Below are positions 299 to 11,068 of a DNA stretch of 24,000 nucleotides, piece by piece. Each line of letters begins with the position of its first letter. Positions within the stretch are counted from its first letter, which is position 1. The notes beneath the pieces were generated by a model that ran no database searches, was not told where the DNA came from, and saw nothing but the letters and a program-made list of their open reading frames with translations. The position numbers and the translations under genes were made by a program. Origin of the DNA: an uncultured Syntrophomonadaceae bacterium (GTDB lineage: Bacteria > Bacillota > Syntrophomonadia > Syntrophomonadales > Syntrophomonadaceae); assembly GCA_964514235.1 (NCBI GenBank), contig CAZEPV010000009.1:1-24000 (forward strand), in the 5' to 3' direction.

Positions 299-1264
299 AT
301 GGATTTCCACCAGCTAAGAATTTTTATCGAAGTTGCTCGCCAAAAAAACTTTTCCAAGGCCGCTGATACTATTTACCTTACCCAGCCTACAGTCAGTAGC
401 CACATTAAGGCTCTGGAGGAAGAAATCGGGGTTTTATTATTTGATCGCACACAACGCGAGTTGCAACTAACTGTTGCAGGAAAAACCCTTTTTCAATATG
501 CCCAGCAACTAATAAGTATAAAAGAGGAGGCTTTTTTCGCTGTACAAGAGGAATACCAGACTATTAAGGGCCATCTAGAGTTAGCTGCCAGTAGTGTCCC
601 AGGTACCTATATCTTACCCCGCCTAATGAAGGATTTTTCAACCAAATATCCTGGAGTAACCTTTGCAGTTACACTTCGTGATTCCAAACAGATTCACGAA
701 AACATCAGAGATTATACCTATAACTTAGGGTTTGTAGGGGAAGCAGTAAAATCCAGTGACTTAGAAGAAATTAAACTACTGCAAGATGACTTAGTATTAG
801 TAACTGCCCCAGGAATAATCTTGCCAGGGGAGAAAGCTAGCACAAAAGAAATGCATACCCCCCAACTATACGAAATCGACCTGCACTCTGGCACGAATTC
901 AGAAAGTTTTTTAAAGCTCCCCTTTATTCTAAGGGAAACAGGTTCAGCCACCCGCCAGGTTTTTGAAAATGCTTTACAGAAATTCTACGGTGATAAGGAG
1001 GCAAATATTAACGTCTTAGCTTATTTGGAGAGTCAGGAAGCTATTAAGGAAGCGGTCAAAAATGGCCTGGGGGTAACTGTAATTTCCCTGTATGCAATTC
1101 GTAGTGAAGTTGAAGCTGCTACCTTGAAAGCCTATAGAATACCTGCTTTGCAAATCAAACGCGACTTCTACTTAATTTACCATAAAAACCGAGTATTTTC
1201 ACCTTTATATAAGGCCTTTCTAAAATATTCTTTGGCATATTTCCAGAAAACATTAGATTTTTAG
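299..1264 (+). CDS. LysR-family transcriptional regulator (LTTR)
   Basis: N-terminus MDFHQLRIFIEVARQKNFSKAADTIYLTQPTVSSHIKALEEEIGVLLFDR is a textbook LTTR winged-HTH. The ~320 aa length and C-terminal periplasmic-binding-like domain fit. Its stop overlaps the selD stop by 4 nt (convergent). Confidence 0.9.
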   Translation: MDFHQLRIFIEVARQKNFSKAADTIYLTQPTVSSHIKALEEEIGVLLFDRTQRELQLTVAGKTLFQYAQQLISIKEEAFFAVQEEYQTIKGHLELAASSVPGTYILPRLMKDFSTKYPGVTFAVTLRDSKQIHENIRDYTYNLGFVGEAVKSSDLEEIKLLQDDLVLVTAPGIILPGEKASTKEMHTPQLYEIDLHSGTNSESFLKLPFILRETGSATRQVFENALQKFYGDKEANINVLAYLESQEAIKEAVKNGLGVTVISLYAIRSEVEAATLKAYRIPALQIKRDFYLIYHKNRVFSPLYKAFLKYSLAYFQKTLDF

Positions 1265-2304
1265 TAGCAATATATTGCCCGACTTGATTTTTTAACAACT
1301 TGCCCAATAATACTGGCTGAAAGAGTATTTCTTTCTTTAAGTTCTTGGAGCAAATAAGGAGCTTTTTCCTCGGGAACGGATATCAACAAACCCCCAGAAG
1401 TTTGGGGATCTGATATAATATCTTTAAGAATAGGCTCTACAGATGGAGCAATCTTAATATACTGCGACAAAAATTCTTGGTTCACATAACAGCCACCCGG
1501 CACTAGTCCCATGGAAGCAAAGGTTTCAGCTTCAGGAATAATCGGAACCTTGGATGTATCAATTCTGATTTCTACATTACTAGCTTGTGCCATTTCGAGA
1601 CAGTGCCCCAAAAGACCAAAACCAGTAATATCAGTACAGGCATTTACACCCACTTTCATCATGGCTTCTGCCCCATTCTTATTAAGAGTAACCATCAAGT
1701 TAGTCAATTGCCTACTAGTCTTTTCATCCAACATATCTGCCTTTAAAGCTGTAGCTAGTATGCCAGTCCCCAATGGTTTAGTGAGTATAAGAAGATCACC
1801 AGGCTGAGCCCCGGCATTGGATAAGAATCTTTCGGGGTGGACAATGCCCGTAACCGATAAACCGTACTTTAATTCGGGATCCTCGATACTATGACCGCCA
1901 ACTATAGTTGCATCAGCCTCATTGACTAGCTCATGCCCCCCTTTAAGTATCAAATGCAAAATTGATTTGTCCATTTCATTAATGGGAAAACAGACAATAT
2001 TCATAGCAGTTAAAGGAATACCACCCATGGCATAAACATCGCTAAGGGCATTGGCAGCGGCAATCCGACCAAAATCATAAGGGTTGTTTACGATAGGGGT
2101 GAAAAAATCCAGAGTCTGCACCAGGGCTATTTCATCAGTTATTTTATATATGCCTGCATCATCTGAAGCATCAATCCCTACCAAAAGATTAGCATCCTTT
2201 TTTAATATTATATCTTCTAGAATGTCTTTTAAGTCCCCTGGACCTATTTTGGCTGCTCAGCCAGCAGCCCGTGCATTTTCGGTTAATTTATAATTATGAG
2301 GCAT
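1261..2304 (-). CDS. selD: Selenide, water dikinase (selenophosphate synthetase) SelD, selenocysteine-containing (UGA at 2259-2257 read as Sec)
   Basis: The ORF-track part (1261-2184) has AIR-synthase-like SelD motifs (VGIDASDDAGIY, DFFTPIVNNPYDFGRIAAANALSDVYAMGG). The same frame extends upstream through a single TGA to ATG at 2304, with GGAGGT 9 nt upstream. This gives MPHNYKLTENARAAG-U-AAKIGPGDL, matching the E. coli GAGCGCK loop with Sec in place of Cys17 and the Lys 3 residues later. Total 347 aa. Confidence 0.9.
2231..2259 (-). promoter_or_regulatory. In-frame UGA (Sec) codon of selD plus candidate bacterial SECIS hairpin
   Basis: Minus-strand UGA lies at 2259-2257. Eleven nt downstream, AGGUCC-AGG-GGACUU (2245-2231) can form a 6-bp stem (one G.U pair) with a G-rich apical loop. 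The UGA also sits in the loop of GCUGC-UGGCUGA-GCAGC. Structure assessed by eye only. Confidence 0.5.
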
Positions 2305-2324
2305 GATTTTTTTACCTCCAATTA

Positions 2325-3182
2325 TCAGTTTTCAAAAACCTGTTTTAGTGCATAAGGAATCTGTTTAATAATATCATATACTTGGGTAGCAGGAGTAGGC
2401 TCAGCCAAGAACCCAGCGATACGGTTTACCTTGGCTGCCTTTGTAGCAGAAGTTACGGTATCAATACCTGCAGCTACAAGTGCTGAAACAATGCCAGTTA
2501 GGGTATCTCCAGTGCCACCTATGGCTTCTAAGACTTCTTCATTAGGTGTGTCAATCTGGGCAAGTATTCCGTCTTGGTTGACCACATAATCAATTACCCC
2601 TTTAACCAGCATGTATTTAGAAGCATTATTATGCTGGTAGGCCTTTCGAATAAGATCAGGCACTCGATTATCTTCATGCAAAATAAAGCCCCGCGTGTAA
2701 AAAGGATGGGGTGCTTTTTCATCAGCTAAATAGGCAAGCTCACCCACATCTGGGGTAAACAAATCAAAAGATGGGGCATCACCACCCATTTTAGCCACAT
2801 ACATAAAGCCCGCATCAGCAATTAAGGTCGGTACTTGGGGCATGGTATTTACAGCGGCCAACAATTCTTTAAACAAAAGCACATCTGGTTGGAAATAGTG
2901 TAATGCCAAAGTTTTGAGGGGTATAGTACGGATCTTGCTTGTTAAGTACTTATAAAGTTTTTCGCACCCCCTGCCATCACCGATGTCCCCAACTAAATAG
3001 GCTGTGGGCTTAGCTTTCCCCATATAATTTAGGGTTGCAACTGCGGCTGCAATCATAGCTGGAGTACCCCGATTTACTGGAATAAGTTTTTCCCCTAAAA
3101 GTAAGTTTTCCCCTTTTAAAGAAACTTCATCATAAACAAGCGGGAAATCCTTTTGGGGAATTGTCCCCACTATGCCGAGCAT
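2325..3182 (-). CDS. Divergent ribokinase-fold protein related to the YjeF-C/NnrD carbohydrate-kinase family; substrate unknown
   Basis: C-terminal GGTGDTLTGIVSALVAAG anion-hole motif, LIADAG...TPDVGELAYL and MLVKG blocks, and the ~285 aa length all resemble the PF01256-type family. The start ATG overlaps the upstream gene by 13 nt. The stop lies 20 nt before the selD start. Confidence 0.7.
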   Translation of the reverse strand: MLGIVGTIPQKDFPLVYDEVSLKGENLLLGEKLIPVNRGTPAMIAAAVATLNYMGKAKPTAYLVGDIGDGRGCEKLYKYLTSKIRTIPLKTLALHYFQPDVLLFKELLAAVNTMPQVPTLIADAGFMYVAKMGGDAPSFDLFTPDVGELAYLADEKAPHPFYTRGFILHEDNRVPDLIRKAYQHNNASKYMLVKGVIDYVVNQDGILAQIDTPNEEVLEAIGGTGDTLTGIVSALVAAGIDTVTSATKAAKVNRIAGFLAEPTPATQVYDIIKQIPYALKQVFEN

Positions 3183-3712
3183 AGCTTCACCACCCGATCA
3201 TAAGCAATTTGCAAAGCATAAGCACAAAGAGTGTGCCCTATATCTAAAGGCTGAGGGCTAACGTCTAAATGTTTATTTACCATTTCCTCAGCTAAATAAG
3301 GAACATCTGGACAACCCCCACCAGAAACATTAACAATTAGCTGGCTGTCTCTATCAATAACAATTTTCATATTTGCTGCCCGAACCATAAGGTATTTTCC
3401 GTATTCCTTTTCATGTAAAAGGTCAACTGGCTCCAACAAAGGACTGTTGACTGGTACAACTTGGGCCGGTTTTATCTTAACTTCGGATAGCTTTCTAATT
3501 ATGAATAATTCCTCTATAAGTGGAAATTCTATCACCAAATCACAACCACTTCGTATTTCTGGAGGTGGGCCTTTTACCTCTATCTTTAGACCTGCAAGTT
3601 CCAAGGTCTTTTTTGCCCTAATAACCTCGGTAGTGTTCTCAAAAACCAATATGCCCCGTTCTATATTTTGTATATTGGGCTTGGCCCGCTTTTTCCGCAA
3701 AAGATTCCTCAT
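3170..3712 (-). CDS. DUF3343-like (putative Se/S carrier) N-terminal domain fused to an uncharacterised Cys-containing C-terminal domain
   Basis: Residues ~20-75 (ILVFENTTEVIRAKKTLELAGLKIEVKGPPPEIRSGCDLVIEF) fit the DUF3343 pattern with its conserved Cys (C57). The C-terminal ~95 aa carry GGGCPDVPY (C134), GHTLCAYAL (C163) and KLCSA (C178). RBS AAAGGGA lies 6 nt upstream of the ATG. Confidence 0.7.
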   Translation of the reverse strand: MRNLLRKKRAKPNIQNIERGILVFENTTEVIRAKKTLELAGLKIEVKGPPPEIRSGCDLVIEFPLIEELFIIRKLSEVKIKPAQVVPVNSPLLEPVDLLHEKEYGKYLMVRAANMKIVIDRDSQLIVNVSGGGCPDVPYLAEEMVNKHLDVSPQPLDIGHTLCAYALQIAYDRVVKLCSA

Positions 3713-3715
3713 ATT

Positions 3716-3934
3716 TTATCCCTTTCTTATGGTAATCCTATAATCGCTATCCTCCGACAGTATTTCTACAAGTTCCCAACCTTTGGATTTGGAAGCACGG
3801 CTTACATTCTCTTTGGCTGTATCGGTGTCTACCATAATTACAATATCACCTTTTTTAAGCTTTTTTATTTTGTTTAAGGTCATAATTACTGGTTGAGGAC
3901 ATGAAAATCCTCTAGCATCAACAATATTATCCAT
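3716..3934 (-). CDS. yedF: TusA/SirA/YedF-family sulfur/selenium carrier protein
   Basis: 72 aa with the N-terminal DARGFSCPQPV motif (CPxP active-site Cys) typical of the TusA/YedF family. It starts 2 nt after the yedE stop, with GGGGGAG as RBS. Confidence 0.85.
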   Translation of the reverse strand: MDNIVDARGFSCPQPVIMTLNKIKKLKKGDIVIMVDTDTAKENVSRASKSKGWELVEILSEDSDYRITIRKG

Positions 3935-3936
3935 TA

Positions 3937-5031
3937 TTAAACTCCCCCTAAAATTCCTTCACGCATGGAAAAACCGATAAGCAAACATACTACAAATCCA
4001 ATCACTAGTGCAATTATTCCCGCTGATGTAACCCCAGCAGCAGAGCTAGCTAGACCGAAATTATGGGCAAAAGCAGCACCTATCACCATACCTAACACAA
4101 ATACGGCTGCATCACCATCGCCTTCCCCGGATAAAAATAGTTGGCGTCCAGGACAACCACCAGCTAAGGTAAAGGCAAGTCCTGAAAGAGCCATACCCGC
4201 GAAATTCCAAAAGTGCATAGTATGGGCTACAGATTGTCCTACAAAGCCTGGATTAAATTGATTAATTAACAAATTGGTAAGAAAAGCAGCTATAAGCAAA
4301 CCGACAATACCAGTAAATAAATGCGCCTGTCTAAATAGGATTAAGTCCCTTATAGCACCCATAGTACAAAAGCGACTCCTTTGAGCTAAAAATCCTATTA
4401 AAAGTCCAATTCCTATGGAAATCATAAGTGGTGCATGCATAGAACCTGGACCCTCTACACTATAGAAAAGCACGCCACTTTGGGCTTGACCTGCAATAAA
4501 TGGATTGAAAATGATTAAAAGCAAAAGGCCAAGCATAATTATAGGAAAGATTAAGCCCGCAGCTTTGTAGGACTTATGGCTGGGCCCCAAATTATAACCA
4601 TTACTAAGGAATCTTGTGCCAATCCAAACACCCACAACCAGTCCTAGTATCCCTAATATAGCATTCCAGTCGCCACCTGCTAAACGAAGCACGGCTCTCC
4701 AGGGACAACCCAAAAATATAAGGGCCCCAATCATAGCAAAAGCACCTAAAACAAATCTGACTATTGGTGCAGAGCCTAAGCGTGGTTTAAATTCCTTGAA
4801 AGCAAATGCTGCTACAAAGGAACCTAAGACAAAACCAATGATTTCTGGCCTTAAATACTGTACAACTGGAGCCCTATGTAAACCCAATGCCCCAGTTATA
4901 TCACGCACAAAACAAGCTACACAAATACCCATATTGGCTGGATTACCCCAAAACTGTAGCAATGATGCTAAAATGCCGATTAGAGCCCCAACCCCTATAA
5001 TGCCCCATCTAGTTGCCAATACATTCCTCAT
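3937..5031 (-). CDS. yedE: YedE-family selenium-metabolism membrane protein (YeeE/YedE sulfur-transport fold)
   Basis: Polytopic membrane protein with paired Cys motifs (GNPANMGICVACFVRD, RSRFCTMGAIRD, GGCPGRQL) characteristic of YedE/YeeE. The ORF track begins at GTG 5046. ATG 5031 is preferred because AGGTGGGG lies 9 nt upstream of it. Confidence 0.85.
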   Translation of the reverse strand: MRNVLATRWGIIGVGALIGILASLLQFWGNPANMGICVACFVRDITGALGLHRAPVVQYLRPEIIGFVLGSFVAAFAFKEFKPRLGSAPIVRFVLGAFAMIGALIFLGCPWRAVLRLAGGDWNAILGILGLVVGVWIGTRFLSNGYNLGPSHKSYKAAGLIFPIIMLGLLLLIIFNPFIAGQAQSGVLFYSVEGPGSMHAPLMISIGIGLLIGFLAQRSRFCTMGAIRDLILFRQAHLFTGIVGLLIAAFLTNLLINQFNPGFVGQSVAHTMHFWNFAGMALSGLAFTLAGGCPGRQLFLSGEGDGDAAVFVLGMVIGAAFAHNFGLASSAAGVTSAGIIALVIGFVVCLLIGFSMREGILGGV

Positions 5032-5203
5032 AAATATAATCCCCACCTATAAAAATTTTGTATACTATGAATTAAATAACAGTATAATCCAACATCTTGT
5101 ATAGGGGAAATAGATTTTTTCTGGATAAAAATTTATTTTAATTGGTTTTTCCTATAGTTAAAAAATTATTCATGCTAGCCTTGAATGCTTAAGTAGATTT
5201 ATC

Positions 5204-5250
5204 CGAATAAAAGACCCCCGAAATTAGACTTTCTTTCTAACTTCAGGGGT
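5204..5250 (-). terminator. Rho-independent terminator of the 5322-6284 gene
   Basis: The minus strand reads ACCCCUGAAGUUAGA-aagaaag-UCUAAUUUCGGGGGU, a ~14-bp stem with G.U pairs, followed by CUUUUAUU. Confidence 0.75.
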
Positions 5251-5321: not shown

Positions 5322-6284
5322 TTACACATCCTCAATTTTTTTAGTAAGCAGAATTTCCTTTCTCTTTCTTACCATTTCATCATATTTAAAATAATATCTT
5401 TTTTTATTATAATATCTGTTAAAGGTAGTAACATATTGTTTTGAATCAAAATATCTTTTTAACCGATTAGAAACTGAATGGATCTGCTCCCCAGGATCAT
5501 ATACTGCAGGGGTACCTTTATGATAATCTATAATGGTTCCCGTAATTACCCCCCAGGAAATATCAGCTAGTGAATATCTCCTAAGATCCCGCACGGCTGC
5601 CCTAAGTATGGCCTCCTGAATTGGGTCAAAAAATTGAAATTCTTTAGAATACATTATAGCACCATGCATATGATTGGGAATATCTAAAAAACCGTCTTTA
5701 AAGACTTGTCGCGATATGTCCCGCAGGAGTTGAAAACAATATTTAAGTATGCCTAGACCCGGGGTAGTTTGACCTGGCAATTGTGGTCTACTACCATCAA
5801 AAACCGCCCGTGGGTTTTTGGCTGACAACCATTCAATAAGAATCATATTGTAGGGTTCAATCCTAGTTCCTTCCTCAAAAAAGCGCTCATGGGGAATAAA
5901 GGTATGTTCACTAACCCTGAGGTCAATAAGCTGGTTTTCTATAGTTTTATCCTTCCAGTAGAGTTTAAAATAGTTTATGTAGTTTGCGTCTCGGTCAATA
6001 TCAATATCAATATCGGAAAAACCCATAGATTCAAGATGCTTTAATAGTCCAATAGATTCAATAACACTAAATATCTCTTCCTTTGAAAACCTCCCCATGA
6101 ATTTCGTTTGGGCAGAACTCTGAAAATTATCAAATGCACTACTTAAATCAATTTGACTAAAATCAAATTCGAAGGAATCAGAAAGACTAAATGTATCTGT
6201 AATGCTGGGATTAACCCTTCTAAAGCTTTTTAATCTATTTGCCTTGCTTCTTCTTGGTGCCAATGGAATACTCCTTTCAGTCAT
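5322..6284 (-). CDS. Hypothetical protein, no family recognised (320 aa from ATG 6284)
   Basis: Long ORF with its own terminator. ATG 6284 has GGAAGG 11 nt upstream, whereas the track start at 6314 has no RBS. The N-terminus is an acidic, Ser-rich low-complexity region, and the C-terminal ~200 aa look globular (RPQLPGQTTPGLG, IPNHMHGAIMY). Confidence 0.7.
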   Translation of the reverse strand: MTERSIPLAPRRSKANRLKSFRRVNPSITDTFSLSDSFEFDFSQIDLSSAFDNFQSSAQTKFMGRFSKEEIFSVIESIGLLKHLESMGFSDIDIDIDRDANYINYFKLYWKDKTIENQLIDLRVSEHTFIPHERFFEEGTRIEPYNMILIEWLSAKNPRAVFDGSRPQLPGQTTPGLGILKYCFQLLRDISRQVFKDGFLDIPNHMHGAIMYSKEFQFFDPIQEAILRAAVRDLRRYSLADISWGVITGTIIDYHKGTPAVYDPGEQIHSVSNRLKRYFDSKQYVTTFNRYYNKKRYYFKYDEMVRKRKEILLTKKIEDV

Positions 6285-6435
6285 AAATAAAATGACCTTC
6301 CAACCCCAAATCATAAAAACATAAACCTATTAATAGTCTATCCTACTTGCCAAAGTATTGTTAGTAAAAAAGTATCTTTATAAAGCATGAATATAAAATC
6401 CTAGATTTCTCCACATAATCCACACTATCCCCTTC

Positions 6436-6565: not shown

Positions 6566-7033
6566 ATGGCTAAAAAGGGTATTAAGCCTGTAGTAAGTAA
6601 TCGCCGAGCTAGATATAATTACCATATAAAAGATGTCTACGAAGCTGGTATAGTCTTAAAAGGAACTGAGGTAAAATCACTGCGCATGGGCAAGGGTAAT
6701 CTACAGGATGCTTTTGCTGTTGTGAGAGATGGTGAAGTATGGTTGAATAATTTTCATATTAGTCCATATGATAAGGGTAACCGTTTTAATCATGATCCGG
6801 TAAGACCTCGAAAGCTCTTGTTACACCGCAGGGAAATTAACCGATTGCTGGGTTTGCAACAGGAAAAAGGCTATACTTTGATACCTTTACAAATATATTT
6901 TAAAAATAGTTTAGCCAAAGTTGAATTGGCCGTAGCAGTAGGTAAAAAACTTTATGATAAAAGGGAAGATATAGCTAAACGCGATGCTAAAAGGGATATG
7001 GAAAGGGCTTTTAAAGAAAAAACTTTAACTTAA
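6566..7033 (+). CDS. smpB: SsrA-binding protein SmpB
   Basis: 155 aa with NRRARYNY...[15 protein letters not shown]...LLLHRREI motifs typical of SmpB. RBS is GAGGTG. The gene lies immediately upstream of tmRNA. Confidence 0.95.
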
Positions 7034-7084: not shown

Positions 7085-7437
7085 GGGGGCGTACTGGTTT
7101 CGACGGGGGAAAAGATGGGTTGAGTAGCGAGCCGAGTTGTCGCCAGCTCGTTAAAAAGGTGAAAACATTAAATTAACTGCAGAAGATAATTTTGCACTAG
7201 CAGCGTAAAGCTGCTCGTCCGGCTAAGTAACCTCGTGGCTTAGTGCAGGGCGTCACATAGCGAGGGTACCCTAAGGTCTTCTTTCTCGAGGGGCTTTAAG
7301 GGGAAATTTATCGAGGATAGCCTTAAACAGCCAGTTCATGGGCGGTGGTTAGGCGAAATTCAAAACATGGACTGCGCTCGGAGAGACTCTGCTGGTCTTT
7401 CTTTCGGACGGGAGTTCGACTCTCCCCGCCTCCACCA
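7085..7437 (+). ncRNA. ssrA: tmRNA (ssrA), tag peptide ...AEDNFALAA
   Basis: The 5' end is GGGGGCGUACUGGUUUCGACGGGG. The 3' end is GGACGGGAGUUCGACUCUCCCCGCCUCCACCA (T-arm, acceptor and CCA). The internal tag frame GCA GAA GAT AAT TTT GCA CTA GCA GCG TAA sits at 7179-7208. The gene is adjacent to smpB. Confidence 0.95.
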
Positions 7438-7949: not shown

Positions 7950-7978
7950 TTGACAATTTAATTGTAAATACTTATATT
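7950..7978 (+). promoter_or_regulatory. SigA-type promoter of the XRE/membrane-protein operon
   Basis: TTGACA (7950-7955), a 17-nt spacer, then TATATT (7973-7978). The -35 region overlaps a small dyad ACAATT-T-AATTGT (7953-7965). Confidence 0.75.
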
Positions 7979-7980
7979 TT

Positions 7981-8000
7981 AAGTAAAGCTAGCTTTACTT
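7981..8000 (+). promoter_or_regulatory. Perfect 20-bp palindrome, candidate operator (or 5'-UTR hairpin)
   Basis: AAGTAAAGCT|AGCTTTACTT is perfectly self-complementary. It lies between the -10 box and the RBS AGGTGGTG (8003-8010) of the XRE gene. Confidence 0.6.
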
Positions 8001-8015
8001 TTAGGTGGTGTTATA

Positions 8016-8222
8016 GTGAGAAATCGATTAAAAGAGCTAAGAGAGCAATTTAGTCTCACCCAGGAGGATTTAGCAGGTAAAGTAGGGGTTTCTAGGCAAA
8101 CTATTATATCCTTGGAGAAAGGGAGGTACAGCCCCTCACTCCTTTTAGCCTTTAAACTCGCTAAGGTCTTTAATCTCCCCATAGAGGAGGTCTTTATTTT
8201 TGAAATAAGAAAGGAAGATTAG
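8016..8222 (+). CDS. Small XRE-family HTH transcriptional regulator
   Basis: 68 aa. LKELREQFSLTQEDLAGKVGVSRQTIISLEKGRYSPSLLLAFKLAKVF is a classic HTH_3 (Cro/C1-type) domain. The start is GTG with a strong RBS. Confidence 0.9.
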   Translation: MRNRLKELREQFSLTQEDLAGKVGVSRQTIISLEKGRYSPSLLLAFKLAKVFNLPIEEVFIFEIRKED

Positions 8223-8223
8223 T

Positions 8224-8622
8224 ATGGACAGCAAAAAAAGATATCTATATATGGTGATAACCCTGGCCATTTTATTAGGCATAGGAATTTGGAACATTCA
8301 AAATGGTAAGATTGCTTTTGGAGCCAGTTTAATGGGGGCTGCCCTAGGTGTAGGAATTATGCGCTATATTAAAGAAAAGCGTTTGGCAAAATTAAGGGCT
8401 AAGGGACTTGAACCACGCGATGAGCGTGCTATGCATGTAGCAGGATTAGCATCTACTATGACTCTTAATATCACTATCTTTTTAATTGCGATAATAATAC
8501 TATTAGGTATGATAATTGGCCCAGAAATAATGGTTAATCCTTATGATTTATTAGGTTTTTGCTTGGCTGCTATTGTTCTGGTATATATTGTGGCCTTCTA
8601 TTTCTATAATCGGCAAAGCTAG
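8224..8622 (+). CDS. Small integral membrane protein (about 4 TM helices), partner of the XRE regulator; tentatively DUF2178-like
   Basis: Starts 1 nt after the XRE stop. Four hydrophobic segments are visible (YLYMVITLAILLGIGIW, FGASLMGAALGVGIM, LNITIFLIAIIILLGMIIG, LLGFCLAAIVLVYIVAFYF). The family assignment is from memory of the common XRE plus DUF2178 gene pairing. Confidence 0.7.
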   Translation: MDSKKRYLYMVITLAILLGIGIWNIQNGKIAFGASLMGAALGVGIMRYIKEKRLAKLRAKGLEPRDERAMHVAGLASTMTLNITIFLIAIIILLGMIIGPEIMVNPYDLLGFCLAAIVLVYIVAFYFYNRQS

Positions 8623-8766
8623 GTAACTGCCATGAGAAATAGTAAAAAATATTTCCCCCGCCCTTAAATATGGGGAAGATGTCCTTTTTGCTTTAGGACA
8701 AGTTGGCATCGGGGCTATTTTTCTAGATAGTGCTGATACTGTTTATGGGTAATTTTACTGCTAATA

Positions 8767-8811
8767 GGGGCTTTAATAATTATGACCATAACTATTAAAG
8801 CCCTTGTTTTT
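8767..8811 (+). terminator. Rho-independent terminator of the XRE operon
   Basis: GGGCTTTAATA (8768-8778) pairs with TATTAAAGCCC (8793-8803), followed by TTGTTTTT. Confidence 0.75.
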
Positions 8812-8855
8812 GTGAACGATCTTAGCCAGGCAGTACAAAGATTAAAAATTGCAAT

Positions 8856-9536
8856 CTAGTCAGTGCATTTTGTAATAGGATTATGCACACTGTCACCATA
8901 TGGTAATAAGAATTCCCTTATACCACTGGAATAGGGGGCTATATCATATTGTTGATAATATACTACCAAACCCTCTGGCCTACAATAAAAACTATTCTCA
9001 TTAAAATTCTGTTCTGCTAATTCTTCATAATTATCGAAATAAATATCGGGGTTTTTCTTAACCTCCTCGATTACTTGCTGGACGATATATGTTTTATAAT
9101 CAAATGAAGGGGCAAATAGCTCCTTAAGTTCAAGCATTTCACCGATTTGTAAGTTCCAAGTCTGTGAAGATCTATTAGTTAAACCGTGGGCTCCACCAGT
9201 ATATTCATAATTATCAAAGTACAAGCTAATTATACAAGCCTTATTAAAGGTGAGCTTAAAAGTCTGCAAGGCTTCAAATACCCGAATGGGGAAACCGTTT
9301 TCGATATCATCTAGGTACTGATCAACTGCCATTTGATATAGCTTAGTGCGTAAATAAGTCCTTAGTTCAAAAGCCTTATCTCTATAAAATTGATTTATAT
9401 CTTTAATATGTTCCTTATAGACAAGGGCCTTAAATTCTGGATACTCTATCCTGTATTTTAAAACCGTAACCCCATCATATTTCATTTCCTCGGTAATTAC
9501 TTTTTTGTTATAGTTTACCGCCTTTTTCAATTTCAT
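8856..9536 (-). CDS. DUF3298/DUF4163-like protein (RsiV/PdaC C-terminal-domain family), no signal peptide evident
   Basis: IEYPEF...INQFY...YEYTGGAHG...YDIAPYSSG blocks are typical of DUF4163+DUF3298. The track start at 9608 is a TTG inside the selO 3' end with no RBS. GAGGTG lies at 9542-9537, so the start is ATG 9536 or TTG 9530. Confidence 0.75.
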   Translation of the reverse strand: MKLKKAVNYNKKVITEEMKYDGVTVLKYRIEYPEFKALVYKEHIKDINQFYRDKAFELRTYLRTKLYQMAVDQYLDDIENGFPIRVFEALQTFKLTFNKACIISLYFDNYEYTGGAHGLTNRSSQTWNLQIGEMLELKELFAPSFDYKTYIVQQVIEEVKKNPDIYFDNYEELAEQNFNENSFYCRPEGLVVYYQQYDIAPYSSGIREFLLPYGDSVHNPITKCTD

Positions 9537-9595: not shown

Positions 9596-11068
9596 CTAGG
9601 TTCCACAAAAGGTTTGATATGGAATTAGGGACGGTTCAGGTAAAATACTATATTCGTCTTGTTCTGCTGCATAAGCAAATGGTGCCGAAAGTGCATTTAT
9701 AAGACGGTGCGCAATTGCCAAATCACCATCTACCACAGCACCCTCAAGTGCCTCTTCCACCCTATGATTACGGGGTATTATAGCTGGATTAGTTTTGCGC
9801 ATTAGTATCTGCACAGCATCTTGGGGACTGTTTTGCCTAGCTAATCTAGTTTGCCATGCCTTATGCCATTCACGAAATTCCGCCTCATCGTATATCCTAG
9901 TTGCCTTTATTTCCCCCAAAGTTAAGCTGCGAAATGTATTGGTATAATCCTCTTCATGTTTTTCCATTATAGCCAGCAAATCCTTTATAAGGGTTTCATC
10001 TGTGGCATCTTCCCCAAAAAGTCCTAATTTGGCCCGCATTCCGGCTGACCAATTGCAGGCATACAAATTATCATATTCCACCAGGGCTTTTTCGGCTATT
10101 TCCACTGCTCGGTCTATATTTTCGTCTAATAGCGGTAATAGGGTCTCGGCAAATCTAGCTAAATTCCATTTACCTATAATAGGTTGGTTTTCGTAGGCAT
10201 AGCGCCCTTGGAGATCAATAGAAGAAAATACTGTTGCGGAGTGGTAAGTGTCCATAAAGGCACAGGGCCCATAATCAATAGTCTCCCCACTTATCAGCAT
10301 ATTGTCGGTATTCATTACCCCATGAATAAAGCCTACTAACATCCATTTAGCAATTAGTCTAGCTTGACCCTCTACTACTTCTTGTAGAAATAATAAATAT
10401 TTATTTTCGGCCGAGCAAATTGCTGGAAAATGTCTTTCTATAGTATAATCGGCCAAAATTTTAAGTTCCTCTACTGTGCCCCACTGGGCAATATATTGGA
10501 AAGTGCCTACCCGAATATGGCTGGATGCTACTCGGGTAAGGATAGCCCCTGGCAAAATATCTTCCCTGTAAACCTTTTCCCCAGTCCTTACAAGGGCTAG
10601 ACTTCTAGTAGTTGGTATATTAAGGCCATGCATAGCCTCACTTATTATATATTCCCTCAGCATAGGCCCAAGGCTGGCCCTGCCATCACCCCCACGGGAA
10701 TAGGGAGTCCTACCCGAACCCTTTAACTGGATATCGTACTTTTTATCCCTAGGAGTTATTTGTTCACCGAGTAAAATGGCCCGCCCATCTCCCAACTTGG
10801 TAAAATGGCCAAATTGGTGGCCCGCATAAGCCTGAGCCAATGGTATTCCACCTTCCGGGATTTTATTGCCAGCGAATATATTGACCCCATCTGAGCTTTT
10901 TAATAATTTAGACTTCAGCCCTAAGTATTCAGCCAAAGGTTCATTTAATATTACTAACTCTGGTGAAATAACTGGAACCGGTTTTAATTGGGCAAAAAAC
11001 ACATCTGGTAAAGCTGCATAAGAATTTTCCAACTTCCAGTCCGATGTTTTTAATAGTTTATTGGTCAT
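9596..11068 (-). CDS. selO: Protein adenylyltransferase SelO (YdiU/UPF0061 pseudokinase-fold AMPylase)
   Basis: 490 aa with [36 protein letters not shown] and [23 protein letters not shown] motifs. It ends ...TFCGT, placing Cys at the antepenultimate residue. RBS AAGGAG lies 5 nt upstream. Confidence 0.9.

Follow-up and report, generated by a model that had tools for sequence, protein, structure and literature searches.

The window analyzed here, a stretch of 24,000 nucleotides (nt) from an uncultured Syntrophomonadaceae bacterium, carries on its minus strand a row of five genes: yedE, a yedF-like gene of the TusA family, a gene for a fusion of the domains DUF3343 and DUF8182, a gene for a YjeF_C-like protein of the ribokinase fold (hereafter the kinase-like protein, or Kin), and a selenocysteine (Sec)-containing selD. 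The first four form a cassette, here called type B, which lies directly upstream of selD and beside a LysR regulator gene of selenium metabolism, and which we read, with moderate confidence, as a selenium-acquisition system working by the mechanism proposed below. Gene order, gene fusions, and family membership make both the link to selenium and the partnership between the DUF3343::DUF8182 carrier and the kinase-like protein well supported; the predicted role of the module, acquisition and trafficking of selenium for SelD, is much better supported than any specific chemistry.

The layout is a genuine five-gene predicted selenium operon, as the original prediction had held, and its structural claims withstood a re-reading of the sequence, all ORFs (open reading frames) being found where it had placed them. 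yedE occupies 3937-5031 (from an ATG; starting from a GTG at 5046 the ORF would be slightly longer), the yedF-like gene 3716-3934 (72 residues, PF01206, with a CPxP motif), the fusion gene 3170-3712 (180 residues, PF11823 and PF26554), the kinase-like gene 2325-3182 (285 residues, PF01256, ribokinase-superfamily fold), and selD 1261-2304 (TIGR00476). The assignments made at the outset are borne out by matches to TIGR04112, PF01206, PF11823, PF01256, and TIGR00476. From yedE to selD the junctions measure 2 nt, 3 nt, a 13-nt overlap, and 20 nt, the same values as first reported, and a purine-rich, Shine-Dalgarno-like stretch lies 6-10 nt 5' of each of the five starts, one per gene, as had been claimed. 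The prediction had seen no internal terminator in the row, and a terminator scan gives no excess of them: 6 terminator-like sites where 4.7 are expected from shuffled sequences. The only strong one, an intrinsic-terminator-like hairpin on the minus strand (5250-5214; a 15-bp stem, then a T-run), lies 5' of yedE and ends the preceding gene; it thus marks the 5' boundary of the operon. That gene, a 330-residue ORF at 5322-6314 (minus), is without a match in Pfam or NCBIfam. At the other end, the LysR gene (299-1264, plus) converges on selD, and their stop regions overlap by 4 nt (1261-1264), which leaves no terminator between the two. A common strand, short or overlapping junctions, and terminator-like sites no more frequent than in shuffled sequence together have the form of an operon.

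The arrangement recurs widely. A pattern scan over one genome per species found relatives of the kinase-like protein encoded in at least 566 species genomes, the best 80 loci of which, from Bacillota, Synergistota, Atribacterota, Nitrospirota, and Desulfobacterota, were analyzed; a second scan, of metagenomes and seeded with divergent fused proteins, added 80 loci with kinases 40-59% identical, several from the human gut. Counts for genome loci refer to those in which the flanking sequence permits judgement, hence denominators below 80, and counts of selD and NifS neighbors refer to fetched flanks of 8-10 kb. Directly 5' of the kinase-like gene stands the DUF3343::DUF8182 gene in 79/79 genome loci; further upstream, yedF follows in 73/74, where it is flanked by the fusion gene and yedE, and yedE itself in 64/65. 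The stop of the fusion gene overlaps the start of the kinase gene by 13 nt in 50 of 74 loci; in another 22 the overlap is 4, 7, or 16 nt. In the metagenome loci, too, the four genes stand in this order; the one clear exception is L109, where the fusion and kinase pair stands alone (7965-9370), with no yedE or yedF within 8 kb; its neighbors there are a diguanylate cyclase gene upstream and a sigma-54 activator gene downstream. Homologues of both middle genes thus adjoin yedE and yedF almost without exception, in genomes and metagenomes alike, in keeping with the tie originally proposed between them; and since both the gene order and the overlapping junction recur across 160 independent loci, the arrangement in the window is far beyond chance. 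The conserved unit consists of four genes, yedE, yedF, fusion, and kinase. selD adjoins it in a minority of loci, immediately 3' of the kinase gene in 17/65 genome loci, so that of the five-gene core unit first envisaged the first four members stand and the fifth does not.

Within the unit, the DUF3343::DUF8182 protein and the kinase-like protein very probably work together as one, because the two also exist as a single polypeptide: in P0249, P0250, P0274, P0289, and P0299 the chain runs DUF3343-DUF8182-linker-kinase. The relay originally proposed had the DUF3343 carrier and an ATP-utilizing step as successive stations; these gene fusions point instead to one unit. A decayed plasmid copy in Nostoc also still pairs DUF8182 with a kinase gene. 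In this relic, on plasmid3 of Nostoc carneum NIES-2107, a truncated DUF8182 of 59 residues directly precedes a 46%-identical kinase-like gene with eroded motifs (L085:8819-9891); a truncated yedE lies about 140 kb away on the same plasmid (L167:5914-6717), and the kinase remnant and the truncated yedE are both flanked by annotated hypothetical genes of equal size (387 nt and 1707 nt).

The N-terminal domain of the fusion protein is DUF3343 (Se_S_carrier; PF11823 with 62.8 bits, gathering score 25). The C-terminal half is DUF8182 (PF26554) according to the precomputed Pfam assignments of the 100% identical P0121, of L081/L082, and of all 120 homologues listed. Four cysteines are invariant: Cys57 in DUF3343, and Cys134 (in the motif GGGCPDVPY), Cys163, and Cys178 in DUF8182. 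The AlphaFold2 (AF2) model (predicted local distance difference test, pLDDT, 86.9) combines a ferredoxin-like N-terminal domain with a C-terminal domain of four strands and three helices, in which Cys134 and Cys163 each lie a few residues ahead of the start of a helix. No solved relative of the C-terminal domain was found in the PDB, either by sequence or with Foldseek, and the profile of the fusion protein returned nothing meaningful; against a Pfam set without PF26554, the isolated C-terminal domain gave a sub-threshold match to DUF749 only. The domain is rare: an exhaustive HMMER search of 1.84 billion proteins yielded just 97 cluster representatives, almost all with DUF8182 after a DUF3343 domain. 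DUF8182 is thus nearly always confined to the architecture DUF3343-DUF8182, with or without the kinase.

The kinase-like protein has a divergent YjeF_C/ThiM-like fold of the ribokinase superfamily, as judged from its model and family matches, and is without a close characterized relative. It matches PF01256 (Carb_kinase/YjeF_C) with 41 bits against a gathering score of 27, over residues 118-270 only; its AF2 model is confident (pLDDT 88.7, predicted template-modelling score 0.91); and Foldseek places the model with ThiD, ThiM, PdxK, and YjeF_C at template-modelling scores of 0.5-0.6, 10-18% identity, and E ~1e-7. The YjeF-C-like kinase fold originally read from the sequence is thus upheld by Pfam, AF2, and Foldseek together, while every NCBIfam equivalog cutoff is missed: those of NnrD (TIGR00196 yjeF_cterm, 37.8 against 129.85; NF007856, 15.2 against 703) as well as those of ThiM (NF006830, 30.2 against 180; TIGR00694, 14.6 against 256). 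A PDB search with the family profile returned nothing at E <= 0.01, and the single sequence reached only E = 0.19, to TM0922 and ThiM. Two motifs, TPDxGE and GGTGDTLTG, are invariant in the family alignment and strictly kept from 40% to 100% identity; in an alignment to E. coli Nnr, a weak one (hhalign probability 39%), their counterparts are TPHPGE and GGMGDVLSG, and TM0922 and ThiM have equivalent motifs that align as well. Since both motifs are invariant and alignable to Nnr and the model has the fold of the superfamily, the protein is probably an active enzyme. Additionally, it has features of its own: an invariant, family-specific loop LADExAPHPFYTRGF, flexible in the AF2 model, and a distinct N-terminal third with a β-hairpin subdomain and an invariant 25-residue insert. 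It is without an essential cysteine: the window has Ala in place of Cys61, and the family has either Cys or Ser at position 73.

In public records the 285-residue protein is named NAD(P)H-hydrate dehydratase. This name, together with a PF01256 match above the gathering score, is what would recommend it as an ordinary NAD(P)HX dehydratase (NnrD) that merely happens to lie in the operon, a reading that we consider extremely unlikely. The TIGR00196 score falls far below its cutoff, the profile finds no NnrD structure and the single sequence one at E = 0.19 only, the invariant loop and the N-terminal third are specific to the family, and the overlapping junction and the fusion tie the kinase to DUF8182 across phyla, which is unexpected for a housekeeping repair enzyme. 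A housekeeping NnrD was rejected on these scores, on the loop, and on the coupling to DUF8182; and because the protein misses the equivalog cutoff for NAD(P)HX dehydratases, the annotation, widespread in databases, is probably wrong. NnrD/YjeF_C and ThiM share with the kinase-like protein the fold and the TPxxGE and GxGD motifs; they differ from it in sequence (10-18% identity), in the N-terminal third, and in that the kinase-like protein has an obligate, Cys-rich carrier partner.

Alternatively, the kinase-like protein may perform no selenium chemistry and act as a non-catalytic scaffold or nucleotide-sensing subunit that holds or gates the DUF8182 carrier, for example coupling hand-off to energy status. 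It is far from all characterized enzymes of the fold, it is fused to carrier and redox domains, and it has no essential cysteine, Cys61 and Cys73 being variable; yet the Asp of GGTGD and the TPDxGE motif are strictly invariant, which is more than nucleotide binding alone usually needs, and a scaffold is thus an unlikely alternative to a carrier paired with an active enzyme.

The redox domain in question belongs to a small protein that accompanies the pair. Clustering of all ORFs in the 80 genome loci gave, besides the four core genes, selD, and LysR, only two recurring families. One is a DUF1858-like CxCC protein of about 77 residues, encoded directly 3' of the kinase gene in 31/80 loci, mostly of Desulfobacterota and Nitrospirota (for example in L034, L035, L041, L044, L052, L055, L056, L058, L070, L074, L076, L077, and L080, and in L029, there after selD); in L066:10001-11098, L075:10001-11110, and L079:10001-11116 the CxCC domain is fused to the C-terminus of the kinase and has a sub-threshold match to TIGR03980, the hybrid cluster protein-associated redox disulfide domain. 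The window contains no DUF1858-like gene. The other is a HAD-like protein of 156 residues (6 loci), whose ORF separates the kinase gene from selD in five loci of Desulfobacterota (L060, L063, L069, L074, and L080) and elsewhere within L011. In Dehalobacterium formicoaceticum, the kinase-like gene is followed by one for a MoaE-like protein of 137 residues (L082:10898-11311).

YedE, a YeeE/YedE-family membrane protein (PF04143) with conserved cysteines, falls into the selenium-associated subfamily and is a putative selenium channel: it scores 484.7 bits on TIGR04112 (seleno_YedE; cutoff 200), while remaining below the cutoffs of the E. coli-type YedE/FdhT (NF033796, 22.8 against 350) and of the thiosulfate transporter TsuA (NF052577, 36.9 against 400). 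It is 68-83% identical to type-B YedE proteins of other phyla. Its small partner is YedF-like by context only: it matches TusA (PF01206, 68.8 bits against a gathering score of 28.6) and has the CPxP cysteine in the motif FSCPQPV, and it fails both YedF equivalogs, TIGR03527 (49.7 against 110, matching positions 1-67 of 194 only) and NF008242 (37.1 against 79).

The link to selenium comes from selD and from the regulator. The selD of the window scores 369.7 bits on TIGR00476 (cutoff 125) for the part after the TGA; this in-frame TGA, which confirms that the gene encodes a Sec residue as predicted, is the 16th codon (2259-2257), in the N-terminal motif ...RAAG-U-AAKIGPG. Two hairpins lie at the UGA, one enclosing it (2269-2251) and one starting 11 nt downstream, with a G-rich loop (2246-2230); together they reach -20.4 kcal/mol (z -2.4, RNA fold), and the second is a plausible candidate for a selenocysteine insertion sequence (SECIS) element. 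Across the loci, selD occurs in the flanks of 36/80 genome and 7/80 metagenome cassettes; an adjacent selD has the orientation of the cassette and follows it after 20-120 nt. Each of the 43 selD genes has an in-frame stop at the Sec position, so their hosts decode selenocysteine. In none of the 160 loci was an in-frame TGA found in place of a conserved Cys codon of YedE, YedF, or the fusion protein; Sec is confined to selD. The LysR protein passes the model for the selenium-metabolism regulator LysR_Sec_metab (NF040786) with 303.5 bits (cutoff 250); 27/80 genome loci include a LysR gene, and of distant LysR neighbors, 32-37% identical to that of the window, 5/5 pass the same model.

These observations bear on the proposal that the cassette moves sulfur (thiosulfate or sulfane sulfur) and that selD is close by on account of shared thiol chemistry or regulation. 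The families themselves invite it: PF04143, to which YedE belongs, is the YeeE/YedE family of sulfur transport, and YedF falls among the TusA sulfurtransferases; comparative genomics found no selenium-specific clade of DUF3343 (Lin et al., 2015; PMC5322559); and most type-B loci are without selD within 8-10 kb. Nevertheless, the YedE of the window scores 485 bits on TIGR04112 and only 37 on TsuA, whose cutoff is 400; selD in 43/160 flanks, always with its Sec codon, is far above chance for a single-copy gene; neighboring LysR genes pass the selenium-specific model; and no sulfur-assimilation genes recur in the loci. On these four points a purely sulfur-trafficking cassette was rejected, and we regard the proposal as unlikely beside a role in selenium acquisition.

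YedE cassettes come in a second form, type A, represented here by six members (relatives of one query, the Pusillibacter YedE, plus two plasmid hits): Pusillibacter faecalis (L166), Enterococcus raffinosus (L168), the chromosome of Peptoclostridium acidaminophilum (L169), and a Sphaerochaetaceae contig and two metagenome contigs (L170-L172). In 6/6, yedE is adjoined by a gene for a class-V aminotransferase (Aminotran_5; NifS/Sec-lyase-like), which is divergent from yedE in five and co-directional just upstream of it in E. raffinosus. After yedE follow a TusA gene in 5/6 and a short, stand-alone DUF3343 gene in 5/6, and selD, selA, selB, LysR_Se, or YqeC genes are often near. DUF8182 and the kinase-like gene are absent from 6/6 type-A cassettes; conversely, a NifS-like gene occurs within 8-10 kb in only 3/160 type-B loci. 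P. acidaminophilum has both forms, type A on the chromosome and type B on a megaplasmid, next to selD (L084). Its two YedE proteins are 55% identical, and type-A and type-B YedE generally share about 50-55%, even within one organism (the window protein is about 51% identical to the type-A YedE of another member of the Clostridia); the short type-A DUF3343 is barely alignable to the fused one. Because the two P. acidaminophilum proteins are further apart than type-B YedE proteins from different phyla, the two forms are, by sequence comparison, distinct lineages that travel as units. And since type A has a NifS-like enzyme where type B has DUF8182 and the kinase, the simplest reading is that the two would load selenium onto the carrier system by different routes, one in place of the other.

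The equivalence of position also argues against a cassette that buffers, stores, or detoxifies selenium, or another chalcogen such as tellurium, and does not feed SelD. The many cysteines could indeed hold selenium as selenotrisulfide, and adjacency to selD is facultative; an adjacent selD, however, is co-oriented and only 20-120 nt downstream, the cassette is linked to a regulator family associated with Sec-decoding genes, and the equivalent position in type A is taken by a NifS/Sec-lyase-like enzyme, in loci that carry selA and selB. Buffering or detoxification is thus quite unlikely, and supply of selenium to SelD is the role carried forward here.

NifS, CsdB, and selenocysteine lyase are pyridoxal phosphate (PLP) enzymes that act on free selenocysteine and have been proposed to give SelD protein-bound, activated selenium. 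The type-B pair resembles them in its proposed role, and they in turn stand next to yedE in type A; type B, however, is without a PLP enzyme and has instead a nucleotide-dependent fold and a three-Cys domain, which implies a different source of selenium and a different chemistry. For such a chemistry two precedents are at hand. NnrD activates a hydroxyl group in a nucleotide-dependent manner and then eliminates it, a plausible template, by analogy, for the kinase-like protein. Sulfiredoxin uses ATP to phosphorylate Cys-SO2H so that thiols can reduce it; the analogy is mechanistic only, as its fold is unrelated to that of the kinase-like protein and there is no homology.

From these elements the following mechanism may be assembled. 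YedE would pass a selenium species across the membrane along its conserved cysteines, by analogy with YeeE/YeeD, and the CPxP cysteine of the TusA-like YedF would catch it at the cytoplasmic face; the selenium would then go on to the two-protein unit of DUF3343::DUF8182 carrier and YjeF_C-like enzyme. The enzyme would spend ATP or ADP on activating an oxygen-bearing selenium intermediate, for example by phosphorylating the Se-OH of Cys-bound selenite, with NAD(P)HX-dehydratase chemistry and the logic of sulfiredoxin as templates. Carrier thiols would then reduce the selenium and trap it as protein-bound selenotrisulfide or perselenide, and the carrier would deliver it to the Sec/Gly-rich loop of SelD for selenophosphate synthesis. 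The sequences themselves show which genes are present, their conserved order and overlap, the fusions, the link to selD and LysR_Se, the motifs that Kin has kept, and the split between types A and B; from these we infer the transport substrate, the direction of transfer, the use of nucleotide, and the actual reaction, as well as the linear order of the relay. Nucleotide-dependent activation is proposed because the kinase-like protein keeps phosphoryl-transfer motifs without an essential cysteine, and its partners are Cys-rich. That the carrier and the YjeF_C-like protein constitute a selenium-activating enzyme, using ATP or ADP to make a SelD-dedicated, Cys-bound perselenide or selenotrisulfide from imported oxygen-bearing or unreactive selenium, is put forward as a tentative possibility; the specific chemistry, by which a hydroxyl-bearing selenium intermediate would be activated with a nucleotide, attacked by a thiol, and reduced, is an analogy that remains speculative and rather doubtful.

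Several observations weigh against the mechanism, or against the selenium-acquisition role as a whole. When yedE(-yedF) was deleted in Methanococcus maripaludis, no clear phenotype in selenium transport resulted (PMC11097638). Most type-B loci have no adjacent selD, and in L109 the fusion and kinase pair stands without yedE and yedF. The YedE, TusA, and DUF3343 families also serve sulfur, so that specificity for sulfur or selenium cannot be read from their sequences. Nucleotide binding by the kinase-like protein is deduced from its motifs and from the weak Nnr profile match noted above (39%), and phosphorylation of Se-OH is argued wholly by analogy. Finally, the type-A sample, at six, is small.

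The components of the cassette have been linked to selenium to different degrees. Comparative genomics put forward YedE, YedF, DUF3343, and LysR_Se as selenium genes, and DUF3343 specifically as a Se/S carrier (Lin et al., 2015; PMC5322559); the role of yedF and DUF3343 has since been called 'as-yet-unidentified' (10.1101/2022.04.13.486033). Full-text searches found no paper that connects DUF8182 or YjeF/hydrate dehydratase with selenium. The original prediction had called both middle genes undescribed in selenium pathways; this stands for DUF8182 and the kinase-like protein, the only truly undescribed components, and not for DUF3343, already a candidate carrier. With the type-A cluster of Lin et al., the window has in common a TIGR04112 YedE, a TusA-like partner, the conserved cysteine of DUF3343, and the link to selD, selA, selB, or LysR_Se; type B differs in adding DUF8182 to DUF3343 and a YjeF_C-like enzyme, and in being without an adjacent class-V PLP enzyme. 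Judged by gene content, the predicted selenium module thus differs from the known candidate system by an obligate, widely conserved pair of carrier and enzyme. The YeeE/YeeD thiosulfate system (TsuA/TsuB; PMC11073785) likewise has a membrane protein, homologous to YedE, with conserved relay cysteines, and a small partner of the TusA family; the CPxP cysteine of this partner captures the substrate at the cytoplasmic exit. There, transport proceeds by a cysteine relay and group translocation, and the downstream acceptor proteins are still unidentified (PMC11073785). Natural fusion proteins exist. In contrast to type B, however, this system is without a known DUF3343, DUF8182, or kinase partner, and the YedE of the window, with 37 against the TsuA cutoff of 400, is clearly set apart from it.

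According to a study of 2024, a dedicated transporter for selenium is not known from any organism (PMC11097638); according to a review of 2026, a high-affinity transport system specific for selenium has yet to be identified in a prokaryote (PMC13188914). For the specific acquisition of trace selenium and its hand-off to selenophosphate synthetase, the locus offers a concrete candidate for an enzymatic step that is new and probably nucleotide-dependent. It defines a four-gene module with sharp limits, found in hundreds of anaerobic species, in which two unstudied proteins are obligate partners and replace the NifS-like enzyme of type A. If the proposal is true, the pair would fill the role of NifS/selenocysteine lyase without PLP and would supply the specific step of selenium delivery that is missing in many anaerobes, those of the gut among them. 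P. acidaminophilum, cultured and a classical selenoprotein organism, carries both types of cassette.

Regulation may proceed from the intergenic region 5' of yedE (5047-5213, minus), a putative promoter/operator with a putative LysR-type box. It contains a sigma-70-like TTGGAT...TAGTAT and, over this putative promoter, a dyad TATACT-N12-AGTATA with a 5-bp core, ATACT-N14-AGTAT; the element ATCTATTTCCCCTAT in this region is common to the window and locus L005. In 13/110 orthologous loci (L002, L004, L010, L011, L016, L017, L022, L023, L025, L027, L029, L126, and L151), where shuffled sequences give 0.47, yedE is preceded at a distance of 90-160 nt by a related dyad of LysR-box type, CTAT-N16-ATAG. 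This dyad is a candidate operator of LysR_Se; the window has no perfect copy of it in the region upstream of yedE.

The rest of the window is housekeeping, with tmRNA, a SelO/YdiU-like protein, RNase R, a proton-pumping pyrophosphatase, enolase, and iPGM, and the nearest public proteins to those of the window come from a Syntrophomonadaceae metagenome-assembled genome. The SelO/YdiU-family protein adenylyltransferase homologue (9596-11068, minus; PF02696, 387 bits) is encoded some 4.5 kb away from the selenium operon and is probably unrelated to selenium in bacteria. The tmRNA gene (7085-7437) encodes the tag AEDNFALAA and is preceded by an ORF of 155 residues (6566-7033) that is SmpB-like by eye.

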